This document shows, in pieces, positions 1 to 7,594 of a stretch of 7,594 nt of DNA (positions are counted from its first letter, which is position 1; each line of letters begins with the position of its first letter). The stretch lies in assembly GCA_000004985.1 (NCBI GenBank), contig GG739126.1. One strand, 5' to 3'. This DNA comes from Naegleria gruberi. Lineage: Eukaryota. The translations under genes were made by a program, and so were the position numbers. Below the pieces are notes generated by a model. That model saw only the letters and a list, made by a program, of their open reading frames with translations. It did not search any database and was not told the origin of the DNA.

Positions 1-868
1 ATTGCCATCATACCAATAATTGATTTTATACTATTAAACTGGTATTATACACTATAATTGATATATATATGAATATATAATTGAAAGATTTGGTTTTAGA
101 CATTTATTAATGACGTGGGTTGTTCACTAAGGTAGTAACTTTGTCATACGATAACTATCTAAGATGATATTGAAATCATTCCAAAATTGATTCGATGAGA
201 GTATTTGATGATTATAACATGATAGTATTGAATTGGTGTTGATTATTACCATTCATGACATGTAAGAATGTTAACTTTTTGTCAATAAGTACAGTAGCTT
301 GACAGATATTCCAATTATATAGATATTGATTATATCACTCAGAAACGTTATCAATATCAGTTATAAGAGTAGTGGTATGATATTCAATCTTGTTGTACAT
401 CTTGATATTGACTTGTCATATTATCATGAGTTGTTAGTGACATGGTTAAATGACATGAATACTGAATGATGTCCAAATGATTTGAAATTGATAGAAACCT
501 CATTATATGATGTTAATAACATATTGTATCAATTTGGTATTGAATCTCATTGTCCTTAGGGTACTTCCCTATTGAGGTACCTTAATTGACCATCTCTATA
601 TTTAAATTGAGATATGATATTTATTTCAATTGTATCATTTTGTAAATGATGGATAAGTAGCCAAGTTGTGTATGGTGTAGAATTGGTATAACATTATTTT
701 CAACATTTACAAGTGCCATTTCTCATCATCTGTTGGACCAAAACAAAATTTTTTGTTATAGTGGTGGTTTTTTTACTAACCTACATGTACAATATCGGAA
801 CAAGGAGATGCTCTATAGTTGTGCAGAATCATTCCACCAACAATAAGTTTTTGAAATATTCTTTTCTT
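1..868. repeat. Left copy of a large direct repeat matching 6727-7594. It is truncated by the window start, so the true 5' boundary is unknown.
   Basis: Read against each other, 1-120 and 6727-6846 differ at about 5 positions, and 121-240 and 6847-6966 differ at 4. Further along there are small indels, for example gattatatcactc versus gatatatatcactc, and gtatcattttgtaaatgatggataag versus gtatcatcattttgtaaatgataag. Overall identity is about 94-96%. Both copies share an (AT)5 run, at 61-70 and 6787-6796. Confidence 0.9.
785..860. repeat. Degenerate partial monomer (tail-like) at the proximal edge of the satellite array
   Basis: tgtacaatat at 795-804 matches tgtacaatac at the monomer A tail (1145-1154). 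acaacaataagtttttgaaatatt at 835-860 resembles the monomer tails, acaacaaattaaca at 1157-1170 and acaacaaattaaaatttttatatt at 1815-1840. An extra segment of about 40 bp sits between the two matches. Confidence 0.4.
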
Positions 869-1174
869 AGTGAACTTTGCTTGCATCATAATTATTAAGG
901 AATTTTGTCAAGTAGATGGAAAGTGTTCTAAAATTGCTCTAGATGGTAACATTCCGTTACAGTATACTTAAATTCTAAGAAATGGTTGAGATCAGTCGAT
1001 TTTTCACAACTGTAATCTTTAAAACAGTGGTTGTCATCCAACCCGATGTAACAACTACTATTAAATGTTTCAAATGAGCTTGGAGTTGCTCAAACCCGTT
1101 GCTTCTTCTCAAAAGAGTGACTTATTCAACCTTTTGGTGGGATTGTACAATACTGTTCAACAAATTAACATTGT
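861..1174 (+). repeat. Satellite monomer A (314 bp)
   Basis: A aligns to monomer C along its whole length. The segment 998-1110 matches 1658-1770 with about 3-4 mismatches in 113 bp. Confidence 0.85.
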
Positions 1175-1523
1175 CTTTTCTTAGTGAACTTTTCCTTCAT
1201 CCCAATTATTAAGGAATTTTTACAAGGGGATGGAAAATGTTCAAAACTGGCTATAGATGGTATAATTCCATTGAACTATACTCATATTCTTAATAATGAT
1301 TGAGATTGGTCGATTTTTCACAACTGTTATCTTTGAAACAGTGATTTCATCCAACCACTCTTTAATAACAACTCCATGGACTGGCTCAAACCCGTTGTAA
1401 TATTAAATTAAACTTTCTCAAATGAGCTTGGTGTGGCTCAAACCCGGTGTGCTTACGTAAAATTCAATCGGAATACAATTTTAACTGGTATTCTGGCAAA
1501 GAGCCAACATTTTCACAATTAAA
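1175..1523 (+). repeat. Satellite monomer B (349 bp), a divergent variant carrying an internal duplication of about 51 bp
   Basis: B shares the monomer head and the conserved core at 1300-1345 with A and C, but has diverged 3' of the core. The motif gctcaaacccg occurs twice, at 1384-1394 and 1435-1445, whereas A and C each have one copy. This accounts for the roughly 35 bp of extra length. Confidence 0.8.
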
Positions 1524-1838
1524 CTTTCTTACTGAACTTTGAATATTTCACATAGTAAGGAATTTTTTCAAGTAGATGGAAAATGTTCCAAAATCGATAG
1601 AAATGGTACCAGTCCTTTACAGTACACTTAAATTCTCAAAAATGATTGAGATTGGTCGATTTTTCACAACTGTAATCTTTAAAACAGTGGTTGTTATCCA
1701 ACCCGATGTACCAACTACTATTAAATGTTTCAAATGAGCTTGGAGTTGCTCAAACCCGTTGCTTCTTTTCAAAAAAGAGACTTATCCAACCTTTTGAATG
1801 AGACTGTATTATACTATACAACAAATTAAAATTTTTAT
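1524..1838 (+). repeat. Satellite monomer C (about 315 bp), A-type
   Basis: C is near-identical to A in its 3' two-thirds. Its head is ctttcttactgaactttgaatatttcacatagtaagg, compared with A's cttttcttagtgaactttgcttgcatcataattattaagg. Confidence 0.85.
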
Positions 1839-1875
1839 ATTCTTACTGAACTTTTCTTACTTCACAATTATTAAG
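1839..1875 (+). repeat. Satellite monomer D, only its first 37 bp or so, cut off by the N gap. Its head looks B-like.
   Basis: tcttactgaacttttcttacttcacaattattaag resembles the head of B, tcttagtgaacttttccttcatcccaattattaagg. Confidence 0.7.
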
Positions 1876-4800
1876 NNNNNNNNNNNNNNNNNNNNNNNNN
1901 NNNNNNNNNNNNNNNNNNNNNNNNNNNNNNNNNNNNNNNNNNNNNNNNNNNNNNNNNNNNNNNNNNNNNNNNNNNNNNNNNNNNNNNNNNNNNNNNNNNN
2001 NNNNNNNNNNNNNNNNNNNNNNNNNNNNNNNNNNNNNNNNNNNNNNNNNNNNNNNNNNNNNNNNNNNNNNNNNNNNNNNNNNNNNNNNNNNNNNNNNNNN
2101 NNNNNNNNNNNNNNNNNNNNNNNNNNNNNNNNNNNNNNNNNNNNNNNNNNNNNNNNNNNNNNNNNNNNNNNNNNNNNNNNNNNNNNNNNNNNNNNNNNNN
2201 NNNNNNNNNNNNNNNNNNNNNNNNNNNNNNNNNNNNNNNNNNNNNNNNNNNNNNNNNNNNNNNNNNNNNNNNNNNNNNNNNNNNNNNNNNNNNNNNNNNN
2301 NNNNNNNNNNNNNNNNNNNNNNNNNNNNNNNNNNNNNNNNNNNNNNNNNNNNNNNNNNNNNNNNNNNNNNNNNNNNNNNNNNNNNNNNNNNNNNNNNNNN
2401 NNNNNNNNNNNNNNNNNNNNNNNNNNNNNNNNNNNNNNNNNNNNNNNNNNNNNNNNNNNNNNNNNNNNNNNNNNNNNNNNNNNNNNNNNNNNNNNNNNNN
2501 NNNNNNNNNNNNNNNNNNNNNNNNNNNNNNNNNNNNNNNNNNNNNNNNNNNNNNNNNNNNNNNNNNNNNNNNNNNNNNNNNNNNNNNNNNNNNNNNNNNN
2601 NNNNNNNNNNNNNNNNNNNNNNNNNNNNNNNNNNNNNNNNNNNNNNNNNNNNNNNNNNNNNNNNNNNNNNNNNNNNNNNNNNNNNNNNNNNNNNNNNNNN
2701 NNNNNNNNNNNNNNNNNNNNNNNNNNNNNNNNNNNNNNNNNNNNNNNNNNNNNNNNNNNNNNNNNNNNNNNNNNNNNNNNNNNNNNNNNNNNNNNNNNNN
2801 NNNNNNNNNNNNNNNNNNNNNNNNNNNNNNNNNNNNNNNNNNNNNNNNNNNNNNNNNNNNNNNNNNNNNNNNNNNNNNNNNNNNNNNNNNNNNNNNNNNN
2901 NNNNNNNNNNNNNNNNNNNNNNNNNNNNNNNNNNNNNNNNNNNNNNNNNNNNNNNNNNNNNNNNNNNNNNNNNNNNNNNNNNNNNNNNNNNNNNNNNNNN
3001 NNNNNNNNNNNNNNNNNNNNNNNNNNNNNNNNNNNNNNNNNNNNNNNNNNNNNNNNNNNNNNNNNNNNNNNNNNNNNNNNNNNNNNNNNNNNNNNNNNNN
3101 NNNNNNNNNNNNNNNNNNNNNNNNNNNNNNNNNNNNNNNNNNNNNNNNNNNNNNNNNNNNNNNNNNNNNNNNNNNNNNNNNNNNNNNNNNNNNNNNNNNN
3201 NNNNNNNNNNNNNNNNNNNNNNNNNNNNNNNNNNNNNNNNNNNNNNNNNNNNNNNNNNNNNNNNNNNNNNNNNNNNNNNNNNNNNNNNNNNNNNNNNNNN
3301 NNNNNNNNNNNNNNNNNNNNNNNNNNNNNNNNNNNNNNNNNNNNNNNNNNNNNNNNNNNNNNNNNNNNNNNNNNNNNNNNNNNNNNNNNNNNNNNNNNNN
3401 NNNNNNNNNNNNNNNNNNNNNNNNNNNNNNNNNNNNNNNNNNNNNNNNNNNNNNNNNNNNNNNNNNNNNNNNNNNNNNNNNNNNNNNNNNNNNNNNNNNN
3501 NNNNNNNNNNNNNNNNNNNNNNNNNNNNNNNNNNNNNNNNNNNNNNNNNNNNNNNNNNNNNNNNNNNNNNNNNNNNNNNNNNNNNNNNNNNNNNNNNNNN
3601 NNNNNNNNNNNNNNNNNNNNNNNNNNNNNNNNNNNNNNNNNNNNNNNNNNNNNNNNNNNNNNNNNNNNNNNNNNNNNNNNNNNNNNNNNNNNNNNNNNNN
3701 NNNNNNNNNNNNNNNNNNNNNNNNNNNNNNNNNNNNNNNNNNNNNNNNNNNNNNNNNNNNNNNNNNNNNNNNNNNNNNNNNNNNNNNNNNNNNNNNNNNN
3801 NNNNNNNNNNNNNNNNNNNNNNNNNNNNNNNNNNNNNNNNNNNNNNNNNNNNNNNNNNNNNNNNNNNNNNNNNNNNNNNNNNNNNNNNNNNNNNNNNNNN
3901 NNNNNNNNNNNNNNNNNNNNNNNNNNNNNNNNNNNNNNNNNNNNNNNNNNNNNNNNNNNNNNNNNNNNNNNNNNNNNNNNNNNNNNNNNNNNNNNNNNNN
4001 NNNNNNNNNNNNNNNNNNNNNNNNNNNNNNNNNNNNNNNNNNNNNNNNNNNNNNNNNNNNNNNNNNNNNNNNNNNNNNNNNNNNNNNNNNNNNNNNNNNN
4101 NNNNNNNNNNNNNNNNNNNNNNNNNNNNNNNNNNNNNNNNNNNNNNNNNNNNNNNNNNNNNNNNNNNNNNNNNNNNNNNNNNNNNNNNNNNNNNNNNNNN
4201 NNNNNNNNNNNNNNNNNNNNNNNNNNNNNNNNNNNNNNNNNNNNNNNNNNNNNNNNNNNNNNNNNNNNNNNNNNNNNNNNNNNNNNNNNNNNNNNNNNNN
4301 NNNNNNNNNNNNNNNNNNNNNNNNNNNNNNNNNNNNNNNNNNNNNNNNNNNNNNNNNNNNNNNNNNNNNNNNNNNNNNNNNNNNNNNNNNNNNNNNNNNN
4401 NNNNNNNNNNNNNNNNNNNNNNNNNNNNNNNNNNNNNNNNNNNNNNNNNNNNNNNNNNNNNNNNNNNNNNNNNNNNNNNNNNNNNNNNNNNNNNNNNNNN
4501 NNNNNNNNNNNNNNNNNNNNNNNNNNNNNNNNNNNNNNNNNNNNNNNNNNNNNNNNNNNNNNNNNNNNNNNNNNNNNNNNNNNNNNNNNNNNNNNNNNNN
4601 NNNNNNNNNNNNNNNNNNNNNNNNNNNNNNNNNNNNNNNNNNNNNNNNNNNNNNNNNNNNNNNNNNNNNNNNNNNNNNNNNNNNNNNNNNNNNNNNNNNN
4701 NNNNNNNNNNNNNNNNNNNNNNNNNNNNNNNNNNNNNNNNNNNNNNNNNNNNNNNNNNNNNNNNNNNNNNNNNNNNNNNNNNNNNNNNNNNNNNNNNNNN

Positions 4801-6188
4801 NNNNNNNNNNNNNNNNNNNNNNNNNNNNNNNNNNNNNNNNNNNNNNNNNNNNNNNNNNNNNNNNNNNNNNNNNNNNNNNNNNNNNNNNNNNNNNNNNNNN
4901 NNNNNNNNNNNNNNNNNNNNNNNNNNNNNNNNNNNNNNNNNNNNNNNNNNNNNNNNNNNNNNNNNNNNNNNNNNNNNNNNNNNNNNNNNNNNNNNNNNNN
5001 NNNNNNNNNNNNNNNNNNNNNNNNNNNNNNNNNNNNNNNNNNNNNNNNNNNNNNNNNNNNNNNNNNNNNNNNNNNNNNNNNNNNNNNNNNNNNNNNNNNN
5101 NNNNNNNNNNNNNNNNNNNNNNNNNNNNNNNNNNNNNNNNNNNNNNNNNNNNNNNNNNNNNNNNNNNNNNNNNNNNNNNNNNNNNNNNNNNNNNNNNNNN
5201 NNNNNNNNNNNNNNNNNNNNNNNNNNNNNNNNNNNNNNNNNNNNNNNNNNNNNNNNNNNNNNNNNNNNNNNNNNNNNNNNNNNNNNNNNNNNNNNNNNNN
5301 NNNNNNNNNNNNNNNNNNNNNNNNNNNNNNNNNNNNNNNNNNNNNNNNNNNNNNNNNNNNNNNNNNNNNNNNNNNNNNNNNNNNNNNNNNNNNNNNNNNN
5401 NNNNNNNNNNNNNNNNNNNNNNNNNNNNNNNNNNNNNNNNNNNNNNNNNNNNNNNNNNNNNNNNNNNNNNNNNNNNNNNNNNNNNNNNNNNNNNNNNNNN
5501 NNNNNNNNNNNNNNNNNNNNNNNNNNNNNNNNNNNNNNNNNNNNNNNNNNNNNNNNNNNNNNNNNNNNNNNNNNNNNNNNNNNNNNNNNNNNNNNNNNNN
5601 NNNNNNNNNNNNNNNNNNNNNNNNNNNNNNNNNNNNNNNNNNNNNNNNNNNNNNNNNNNNNNNNNNNNNNNNNNNNNNNNNNNNNNNNNNNNNNNNNNNN
5701 NNNNNNNNNNNNNNNNNNNNNNNNNNNNNNNNNNNNNNNNNNNNNNNNNNNNNNNNNNNNNNNNNNNNNNNNNNNNNNNNNNNNNNNNNNNNNNNNNNNN
5801 NNNNNNNNNNNNNNNNNNNNNNNNNNNNNNNNNNNNNNNNNNNNNNNNNNNNNNNNNNNNNNNNNNNNNNNNNNNNNNNNNNNNNNNNNNNNNNNNNNNN
5901 NNNNNNNNNNNNNNNNNNNNNNNNNNNNNNNNNNNNNNNNNNNNNNNNNNNNNNNNNNNNNNNNNNNNNNNNNNNNNNNNNNNNNNNNNNNNNNNNNNNN
6001 NNNNNNNNNNNNNNNNNNNNNNNNNNNNNNNNNNNNNNNNNNNNNNNNNNNNNNNNNNNNNNNNNNNNNNNNNNNNNNNNNNNNNNNNNNNNNNNNNNNN
6101 NNNNNNNNNNNNNNNNNNNNNNNNNNNNNNNNNNNNNNNNNNNNNNNNNNNNNNNNNNNNNNNNNNNNNNNNNNNNNNNNNNNNNNNN
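1876..6188. other. Run of 4313 N: an assembly gap or masked sequence whose content is unknown
   Basis: The run of n characters is uninterrupted. It starts inside a satellite monomer. Confidence 0.99.
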
Positions 6189-6726
6189 TTGATTTAAGAT
6201 TTTGAAATTGTTTATTGTTGATACGAATCAGAAGCTTCTTATTGTGACAACACTTGATAGAAGAATGGGAAAGTGGTTGCATTAATTCAACATATTGAAA
6301 GTGAACAAGGTTCTCATCTCAAGATTTGGAACTCTTCTTCATGAAGAGGAGGTTATTGGGTGGTGACTAGAGAGAAACATTTCCTTGTAGCTTTTCTACA
6401 AGTAAATGATTAATTGACCAAGATGTTGACCTATAATATGGAAACACAATAAAATTCAATAATACTGATAAATACAGTAGTGAATATGAATGGTAATCAT
6501 AAATCACTGAAAAAATCATGATTGGATCCATTTTGAGACTTTTGGAAGTCAACTTGGATGGCAATAGGGGAGCTTTTGATGTGGTTAACACTTTTAAAGG
6601 GATATGAATATTTTATTGGATAATATATGTCATCGCTGTACTTTATCAATAAATATTGAATATCATGATGTTATAATCTATATTTATAATTTGGGAAATG
6701 TTGCAATGTCAATGTTTATTTGAAAT
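6189..6726. other. AT-rich, apparently non-coding segment with no match elsewhere in the window. It lies between the gap and the right copy of the large repeat.
   Basis: No similarity to the satellite monomer or to 1-868 is visible beyond short AT-rich words. The longest ORF is a 74-aa low-complexity frame on the minus strand. Confidence 0.5.
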
Positions 6727-7594
6727 ATTGCCATCATACCAATAATTGATTTTATACTATAAAAATGGTGTTATACACTATAATTGATATATATATGAAT
6801 ATATAATTGAAATATTTGGTTTTAGACATTTATTAATGACGTGGGTTGTTCACTAAGGTAGTAATTTTGTCATATGATAACTATCTAAGATGATATTGAA
6901 ATCATTCCAAAATTGATTCGATGAGAGTATTTGATGATTATAACATGATAATATTGAATTGGTATTGATTCTTACCATTCATGACATGTAAGAATGTTAC
7001 CTTTTTGTCAATTGGGACAGTAGCTTGACAGATATTCCAATTATATAGATATTGATATATATCACTCAAATACGTTATGAATATCTATTATAAGAGTATT
7101 TGTATGATATTCTATCTTGTTGTACATCTTGATATTGACTTGTCATATTATCATGAGTTGTTAGTGACATGGTTGAATGACATGAATACTGAATGATGTC
7201 CAAATGATTTGAAATTGATAGAAACCTCATTATATGATGTTAATAACATATTGTATCAATTTGGTATTGAATCTCATTGTCCTTAGGGTACTTTCCTATT
7301 GAGGAACCTTAATTGACCATCTCTATATTTAAATTGAGATAAGATATTTATTTCAATTGTATCATCATTTTGTAAATGATAAGTAGTCAAGTTGTGTATG
7401 GTGTAGAATTGGGATAACATTATTTTCAACATTTACAAGTGCCATTTCTCATCATCTGTTGGACCAAAACAAAATTTTTTGTTATAGTGGTGGTTTTTTT
7501 ACTAATATCCACTTGTACAATATCGGAACAAGGAGATGCTCTATAGTTGTGCAGAATCATTCCACCAACAATAAGTTTTTGAAATATTCTTTTC
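6727..7594. repeat. Right copy of the large direct repeat (matches 1-868). It is truncated by the window end, where it is entering the same junction into the satellite array that lies at 851-866 in the left copy.
   Basis: The offset is 6726 at the start and 6728 at the end. The final bases, ttgaaatattcttttc, correspond to 851-866, the first bases of satellite monomer A. Confidence 0.9.

Follow-up and report, generated by a model that had tools for sequence, protein, structure and literature searches.

A diverged direct repeat spanning a spacer-to-satellite junction lies on both sides of a sized scaffold gap

The window, that is, the whole 7,594-nt stretch of DNA analyzed here, contains an 866-nt duplication that includes the start of a satellite array. 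We named the left copy R, the right copy R' and the DNA in front of the right copy U2. Both parts of the spacer, U2 and R, are non-coding and are not decayed satellite. We tentatively read R and R' as real paralogous copies of one spacer-satellite junction, an explanation to which we give slightly less than an even chance. The main pieces of the window are as follows.

1-866, strand not given: R, left copy of the large direct repeat (local alignment, repeat finder and shuffle control)
1876-6188: scaffold gap of 4313 N, a size estimate
6189-6726: U2, 538 nt preceding R', neither satellite nor coding, with no partner inside the window
6727-7594, strand not given: R', right copy of the large direct repeat, 2 nt longer than R (alignment and repeat finder)

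Local alignment showed R and R' to be co-linear, with 833 matches, 28 mismatches and five indels (1, 3, 4, 3 and 1 nt in size). They are 96.7% identical over aligned bases (95.4% counting gap columns), and the K2P distance is 0.033. The alignment score of 1543 is far beyond the maximum of 51 reached in 100 shuffles (29.8 ± 3.5), so chance is excluded. An ungapped repeat finder recovered the same blocks at offsets of 6726-6728. Substitutions and small indels are scattered along the alignment, and uninterrupted identity extends over as much as 118 nt. The first-pass annotation had described a co-linear direct repeat of about 95% identity with small indels, which the pairwise alignment bears out; its limits for the right copy (6727-7594) stand, while the left copy, given there as 1-868, ends at 866. 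It had also held that neither boundary of the repeat can be seen, and indeed the alignment runs from the first base of the window to base 7594, its last, so that the repeat may extend beyond the window on either side.

The satellite array, resolved by repeat finder and MAFFT, begins within R and runs to the gap.

848-1875, strand not given: satellite array, 3.05 monomers
848-1161: first monomer (m1), 314 nt
1162-1507: second monomer (m2), 346 nt
1508-1823: third monomer (m3), 316 nt
1824-1875: fourth monomer (m4), partial, interrupted by the N gap

Two monomer types of 314 and 346 nt alternate in the order A-B-A(-B), making a repeat of about 330 nt and a dimer of about 660 nt. Gapped identity is 84% between m1 and m3, 65% between m1 and m2, and 66% between m2 and m3. 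The array consists of head-to-tail monomers of similar length and sequence, as a satellite does. It was not reported by TRF, because adjoining monomers are less than 70% identical (about 65%). A 26-nt conserved core of the satellite had no match in metagenome contigs and a 20-nt core had none in viral contigs; as a printed sequence, the core was not found in the full-text papers searched.

The duplicated segment is thus itself a junction, in which about 850 nt of AT-rich, non-coding spacer passes into the first 12-19 nt of the satellite. The last 12-19 nt of R (848-866) already belong to the first monomer; they correspond to 7576-7594, where the window end cuts R' off after 12-19 nt of a satellite monomer, and they also align with monomer ends at 1162 and 1824. 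The transition from R to satellite is abrupt and identical in the two copies. Since the duplicated segment spans this transition, we counted it in favor of a paralogous junction. In addition, satellite monomers of the same type are 10-16% apart, exceeding the divergence between R and R', consistent with a block duplication that postdates the satellite.

We considered whether the spacer could be decayed satellite and rejected this, since neither R nor U2 aligns locally with the satellite any better than shuffled sequence does; the same is true of U2 against R. GC content is low (26-34%). Open reading frames in the standard code reach at most 81 codons, which is chance level, and alternative codes give longer ones, as expected with fewer stop codons. 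A 149-codon frame in code 4 (6837-7283) has a length seen in only 0.7% of shuffles. It was rejected as a hidden gene: a 1-nt indel breaks it in the other copy, most differences between the copies alter the amino acid, and it has no Pfam match. No Pfam or protein matches were obtained for U2 and the visible satellite, no tRNA was found in the window, and the single Rfam match in the window (E = 0.8) is far below the gathering score. The word ATTGA occurs 18 times in R, against 3.9 expected by shuffle. A motif array of ATTGA was nevertheless rejected, the enrichment being largely accounted for by an order-2 Markov model (11.4 ± 3.2).

Outside searches returned neither related DNA or protein nor an independent further copy of R in any collection searched, and the source is probably a eukaryote. 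A 21-mer from R had no exact match in viral or metagenome contigs. A 21-mer match among genome contigs, in a Eubacteriaceae MAG, lies inside an ordinary mfd-like gene and is attributed to chance, with an expectation of about 0.3 such matches in 2 x 596 Gb. Most stop-to-stop frames of at least 38 aa were joined into a 955-aa query, which matched none of 3220 candidates (Logan and other assemblies), and blastn in distant mode likewise found nothing among 72,556 plasmids and 50,697 phages.

The arrangement of the two contigs bears directly on what the duplication means. The first-pass annotation had the repeat flanking the gap; one copy does lie on each side, but neither abuts it, R lying 1009 nt away with satellite between (867-1875) and R' lying 538 nt away with unique DNA between (6189-6726). 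R and R' therefore occupy the outer ends of the contig pair and not the gap-facing ends, and this geometry excludes a classical unmerged overlap across the gap. The 4313 N are not a placeholder length, so the gap size was presumably estimated from read pairs. Taken at face value, the scaffold order and this sized gap place U2-R downstream of satellite, with R also upstream, which we counted in favor of paralogy. The period of about 6.73 kb spans the N gap and is only as reliable as the gap-size estimate.

The proposed macro-unit of about 6.7 kb with 5.3 kb of satellite has 1.0 kb of satellite actually visible, and the rest of that figure assumes a gap wholly filled with satellite. Comparison between copies covers no more than 866 of the unit's roughly 6726 nt (13%), U2 being unpaired in the window and 4313 nt being N. 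The first-pass annotation had put forward three explanations without choosing among them: a tandem macro-unit, terminal repeats of a large element, and a haplotype or scaffolding artefact. Judged from the sequence, a tandem macro-unit and a haplotype or scaffolding artefact both remain as candidate explanations. Three points had no counterpart in the first-pass annotation, namely the outer-end dovetail, the ending of the repeat inside the first monomer, and the 13% of the unit that can be compared.

If R and R' are paralogous, a spacer of about 1.4 kb (U2 plus R), AT-rich and non-coding, would run into a satellite array of 330/660-nt periodicity. The locus would then read satellite, spacer, satellite, spacer, satellite, with spacer plus satellite block as the repeated unit. 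Such a unit may stem from unequal exchange, or from local segmental duplication, within the satellite domain, copying a block along with its non-satellite interruption; alternatively, a mobile element may have carried the array together with its flank. A full array would also follow R', satellite would fill the N gap, and R and R' would lie about 6.7 kb apart on one chromosome. No function is implied, and the arrangement would be a structural by-product of tandem DNA turnover. Several points count against the paralogous-unit reading: U2 has no visible partner, the array of R' would lie beyond the window, a mere 13% of the unit can be compared, its period depends on an estimated gap, and the collections searched yielded no independent further copy.

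We also considered that the second copy could be the other parental version of the first. In a heterotype false duplication, which we regard as possible but less probable, each haploid genome would hold one U2-R spacer in or bordering the satellite, and haplotypes differing by about 4-5% would have been assembled separately. Read pairs anchored in collapsed monomers would have misplaced the second contig downstream, and 6189-7594 would really overlap position 1. The overlap forms a perfect dovetail from the first base of the first contig to the last base of the second; such a dovetail of the last contig's end with the first contig's start is also expected from two haplotype contigs, and it counts against paralogy. 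The right contig breaks about 12-19 nt into the satellite, as is typical of a repeat-induced break, and the pattern of differences described above is allele-like. In very polymorphic species, allelic divergence reaches 3-5%. The first-pass annotation had concluded from 95% identity and indels that this is not an unmerged overlap of the same molecule; the conclusion holds for a haploid source, but otherwise two haplotypes give such differences.

Published cases of false duplication offer a direct comparison. Both contigs here are shorter than 2 kb, the size class of most such artefacts (PMC2864568), and haplotype contigs scaffolded as gapped tandem duplicates are known (PMC8081667). The former study screened for overlaps that exceed 300 bp and 95% identity and come within 300 bp of both contig ends; R and R', with 866 nt at 95% or more (95.4-96.7%), fall within its length and identity thresholds and touch window bases 1 and 7594, which may not be contig ends. 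The resemblance thus extends to two small gapped contigs, several hundred nucleotides at 95% identity or more, and an alignment that runs to the ends (PMC2864568, PMC8081667). The layout differs, however. The published overlapping contigs share their facing ends, whereas here the shared segment opens the left contig and closes the right one, so that the contig order would need reversal; we take this mismatch in favor of paralogy. The gap is large and positive, which contradicts a simple overlap and calls for the extra assumption of satellite upstream of U2 and mis-anchored pairs. Finally, a divergence of 3.3% substitutions plus five indels exceeds vertebrate genome heterozygosity (0.1-1.6%; PMC8081667, Rhie et al. 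2021), and the identity is below the median of 98.1% for falsely duplicated contigs (PMC2864568, Kelley & Salzberg 2010), which also favors paralogy. From the window alone, the haplotype and paralogous readings cannot be separated.

The abrupt junction, the same in both copies, invites comparison with satellites carried by mobile elements. Two nearby insertions of a dispersed element, such as a non-autonomous Helitron/Helentron or another tandem-repeat-containing element, could carry R together with an internal array, in which case the spacing of about 6.7 kb would be incidental; we think this unlikely. Recurrent flanks of satellite arrays, partly borne by transposable elements, are documented in molluscs (PMC5139131, Satovic et al. 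2016), where arrays and flanks lie within Helitron-superfamily elements with abrupt junctions (see also PMC3879986); such recurrence of flanks also speaks for the paralogous junction. As in those composite arrays with a recurring flank, an AT-rich stretch here passes abruptly into an array, both copies joining it at one and the same point of the monomer, and all of it is non-coding. Unlike them, the present case has two copies only, on one scaffold, and neither hallmarks nor protein remnants of transposable elements were found. The marks of Helitrons and Helentrons are a 5' TC, a 3' hairpin with CTRR termini, and the same flanks at many dispersed arrays. U2 has a 12-nt palindrome, TCTTCATGAAGA (6336-6347), with CTAG 19 nt downstream, which loosely resembles a Helitron 3' end, but a lone palindrome with CTAG easily arises by chance. 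No terminal inverted repeats, target-site duplication, transposase or Rep remnant were seen in the window, and a third copy was not found in searches of viral, metagenome or genome contigs. A high-copy element, moreover, would usually not be expected to assemble through 866 nt as two distinct versions.

Two direct repeats about 0.9 kb long that span 7.6 kb and share about 95% identity also recall the long terminal repeats (LTRs) of one retrotransposon-like element, whose coding interior would be hidden in the N run. The size (at least 866 nt) and the divergence are typical, yet we consider this explanation highly improbable, and the earlier suggestion of terminal repeats of a large element is disfavored, as the visible parts lack TG/CA ends, a primer-binding-like site, a polypurine tract and a protein match. 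Specifically, the visible edges read ATTGCC... and ...TCTTTTC where TG...CA termini would be expected, although the true ends may lie outside the window; positions 867-890 contain neither TGG nor a primer-binding-like site; and 6697-6726 has 15 purines in 30 positions, the longest purine run of U2, GAAGAGGAGG (10 nt), lying about 370 nt upstream of 6727. Unlike the interior of an LTR retrotransposon, the supposed interior opens with satellite (at least 1.0 kb), which adjoins the 5' repeat and overlaps its end. The visible 1.5 kb of it (1.0 kb of satellite and 0.54 kb of non-coding DNA) shows no protein similarity or coding remnant, and at most 4.3 kb would be left for gag-pol.

The end-to-start overlap and the low GC content would likewise suit a molecule about 6.7 kb long that is circular or organellar, or a sequence from a phage, plasmid or bacterium, linearized arbitrarily so that its ends overlap. 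We find this scarcely credible. The overlap is not exact, being 95% identical with five indels, and the window lacks tRNA and rRNA genes as well as any Rfam match above the gathering score. The chance-level frames in the standard code, the code-4 frame broken in the other copy, the lack of blastn matches among the plasmids and phages, and a sole bacterial match that is a chance 21-mer all point the same way.

Returning to the paralogous reading, a stronger form of it would be a higher-order repeat of about 6.7 kb, a 1.4-kb spacer plus about 5 kb of 660-nt dimeric satellite, iterated in tandem as a previously undescribed composite macrosatellite. We regard this form as possible but less likely than not. 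Known macrosatellites and higher-order units include rDNA spacers with sub-repeat arrays and kb-scale macrosatellites. The present locus resembles them in its suggested kb-scale period, in combining a short-period array with a non-repetitive segment, and in copies a few per cent apart. It differs in covering less than one and a fifth units, mostly N, and in a visible part without gene or RNA. If a composite macrosatellite is real, its satellite family is one absent from the collections and full-text papers searched.

Layouts like that of R and R' are commonplace in draft assemblies rich in repeats, and the window alone cannot tell a real second copy from the other parental copy. Its biological weight is small, since it would be either a familiar non-coding repeat architecture or a familiar assembly error. 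It is useful as a flag of assembly quality, with the last contig dovetailing with the first at 95% identity, and two copies should be confirmed by read depth or long reads before such a scaffold is taken for a segmental duplication, an LTR element or a 6.7-kb tandem unit. If the duplication is true, a block of satellite and spacer would have been duplicated after the satellite diversified, and the spacer copies, 3.3% diverged against 10-16% between same-type monomers, would provide a datable marker.

We also observed a weak inverted repeat across the left edge of R'.

6645-6678 and 6936-6969: arms of the weak inverted repeat (repeat finder)

Its arms pair at 28 of 34 positions, against a block-shuffle maximum of 25. 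With a DNA fold z-score of only -1.0 its folding energy is ordinary, no target-site duplication is evident, and it is at most a weak lead toward a MITE or hairpin. It may hint at homology extending further upstream than window base 1.

The 7594-nt window has a GC content of 26-34% and consists of two sequenced blocks with the following features.

1-1875: first sequenced block, split from the second by 4313 N
1-866: left copy of the large direct repeat (R)
848 (approximately) to the gap: satellite array
848: start of satellite monomer m1, 314 nt
1162: start of monomer m2, 346 nt
1508: start of monomer m3, 316 nt
1824: start of monomer m4, cut by the gap
6189-7594: second sequenced block
6189-6726: non-satellite sequence (U2) adjoining the right repeat copy on its upstream side
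6727-7594: right copy of the large direct repeat (R')

As 4313 is not a conventional placeholder length, the size of the gap was presumably estimated from read pairs. Given its odd and short length, the window probably represents the whole record, in which case alignment ends that coincide with window ends need no special explanation.

The first-pass annotation had described a direct repeat at the window ends, and local alignment with a shuffle control confirmed it. R pairs with R' through 833 matches and 28 mismatches (11 transitions and 17 transversions), with five indels totaling 12 nt, giving an identity of 96.7% over aligned bases, or 95.4% with gap columns included, and a K2P distance of 0.033. 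The alignment scored 1543; the best of 100 shuffles reached 51. The longest perfect run is 118 nt (449-566), and the mismatches are clustered, 15 of the 28 falling in 225-390 (6951-7117 in R'), which is 19% of the repeat. Because the alignment starts at base 1 and stops at base 7594, neither true boundary is visible, as was also noted at first.

We compared the satellite monomers with each other. m1 and m3 are 84% identical with gaps included and 90% ungapped across a 244-nt core, m2 is merely 65-66% identical to either, and the truncated m4 is nearest to m2. The satellite is therefore no simple 330-nt repeat; its A and B monomer types alternate, forming a dimer of about 660 nt. TRF did not report the array because adjacent monomers differ too much. 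m2 exceeds m1 and m3 by about 32 nt owing to an insertion, through which it has the conserved motif GCTCAAACCCG twice (1384-1394 and 1436-1446).

The last 12-19 nt of the repeat (848-866, corresponding to 7576-7594) align with the monomer ends preceding 1162 and 1824, so the duplicated object is a spacer-into-satellite junction; the right copy reaches the window end just upon entering a monomer. Neither R nor U2 scored outside shuffle ranges in local alignment to the satellite, and the same held for U2 aligned to R; the spacer as decayed satellite was rejected on these scores. U2 has no partner within the window.

In duplicated overlapping contigs, the overlap lies between the facing ends of adjacent contigs (PMC2864568). 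In contrast, the shared segment here opens the left contig and closes the right one, thus occupying their outer ends, which rules out a classical unmerged overlap across the gap. The layout, in which the last contig dovetails onto the first, is the most informative point of the analysis. A dovetail of this kind can originate from a tandem unit collapsed by the assembler, from a misordering of two versions of one locus, or from window limits placed exactly on a repeat pair. Provided that the scaffold join is genuine, a rightward-pointing read of the left contig has its mate in U2-R, which would place U2-R downstream of the satellite and R upstream of it as well. The spacer would then sit embedded in a satellite domain, whether the copies are paralogs or haplotypes; these two readings differ only in the number of spacers per haploid genome, at least two or one.

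The first-pass annotation had offered three readings: a tandem macro-unit, terminal repeats of a large element, and a scaffolding or haplotype artifact. This interpretation is supported in part, with the first and third readings both still standing. We tentatively favor real paralogous copies, with somewhat less than even confidence. Here, unequal exchange or local duplication would yield a repeating unit made up of a spacer and a satellite block, and scaffold and sequence are both taken at face value. The divergence of R from R' exceeds the heterozygosity of 0.1-1.6% in a vertebrate genome set (PMC8081667), and their identity falls short of the 98.1% median for proven false duplicates (PMC2864568). 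Further, same-type monomers 660 nt apart differ by 10-16%, whereas the R copies, about 6.7 kb apart, differ by 3.3% substitutions, which makes the large repeat either younger than the satellite diversification or allelic. The allelic case, a haplotype split of a single spacer, seems to us rather unlikely. It requires both very high heterozygosity and collapsed satellite in which mate pairs were anchored wrongly. It would fit the perfect dovetail, contigs this small, the break of a contig where the satellite begins and differences whose pattern resembles that of alleles, and haplotype contigs scaffolded as gapped tandem duplicates are documented (PMC8081667).

A satellite-carrying mobile element that inserted twice has a precedent (PMC5139131) but is improbable. 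The only hallmark found was a palindrome, TCTTCATGAAGA, perfect over 12 nt, with CTAG 19 nt downstream (6336-6370). This loosely resembles a Helitron 3' end and, as a single instance, is a mere lead. Terminal repeats of a large element are disfavored: an LTR pair is very improbable, given that TG/CA is absent at the visible repeat edges, a primer-binding site and a polypurine tract are missing, the satellite begins inside the "5' LTR", and no coding remnant is visible, with at most 4.3 kb left for gag-pol. All readings fall in well-known classes (interrupted or composite satellite arrays, TE-associated satellites, heterotype false duplication); the locus is no new class and is possibly an artifact.

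The sequenced part of the window contains no gene. Its longest ORF in the standard code has 81 codons, about the chance level for its composition, and Pfam gave no match for three ORFs tested. A 955-aa concatenate of most stop-to-stop ORF fragments of at least 38 aa had no relative among 5.8 billion proteins. Under code 4 (TGA = Trp), the right copy holds a 149-codon frame (6837-7283, + strand), a length reached in 0.7% of shuffles. A 1-nt indel splits this frame in the left copy (111-434 / 323-556), most R/R' differences alter the amino acid, and Pfam gave no match; it was judged non-coding and free of coding constraint. No tRNA was found in the window, the sole Rfam match had E = 0.8, and blastn found no match in plasmid and phage collections. 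With the imperfect R/R' alignment, these results essentially exclude a circular replicon.

Exact patterns of R and the satellite core were absent from the viral and metagenome contigs scanned, the sequences at this locus match nothing in the collections searched, and the satellite core as a printed string was found in no paper by literature text search. Because these collections do not extend to eukaryotic genomes, the absence of matches says little. More than 3 kb of gene-free sequence, the 330/660-nt satellite and the sized gap together suggest eukaryotic DNA, possibly from a contaminant or a host contig. The genome-contig scan returned one match, a 21-mer at 7889-7909 of the Eubacteriaceae MAG contig DMAW01000059.1. 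The surrounding DNA differs in character from the window, and the 21-mer is part of a normal mfd-like gene belonging to an unrelated bacterium; the identity is due to chance, and the contig was rejected, and should not be taken, as the window's source.

Both R copies contain a degenerate 12-nt tandem repeat, TATAATTGAATA, of about three copies (53-85, 6779-6815). ATTGA/TCAAT is found 18 times in R within 19-630, with 13 of these on the + strand; the right copy has 17. For R, mononucleotide shuffles predict 3.9 occurrences and an order-2 Markov model 11.4 ± 3.2, so the excess is mostly cryptic compositional simplicity and no motif array. A 34-nt inverted repeat (arms 6645-6678 / 6936-6969, 28 of 34 paired, 257-nt loop) spans the upstream edge of R'. 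It outscores all 40 block shuffles, with a DNA folding z-score of a mere -1.0; if it is real, the partner arm of the left copy would be expected some 50-80 nt before window base 1.
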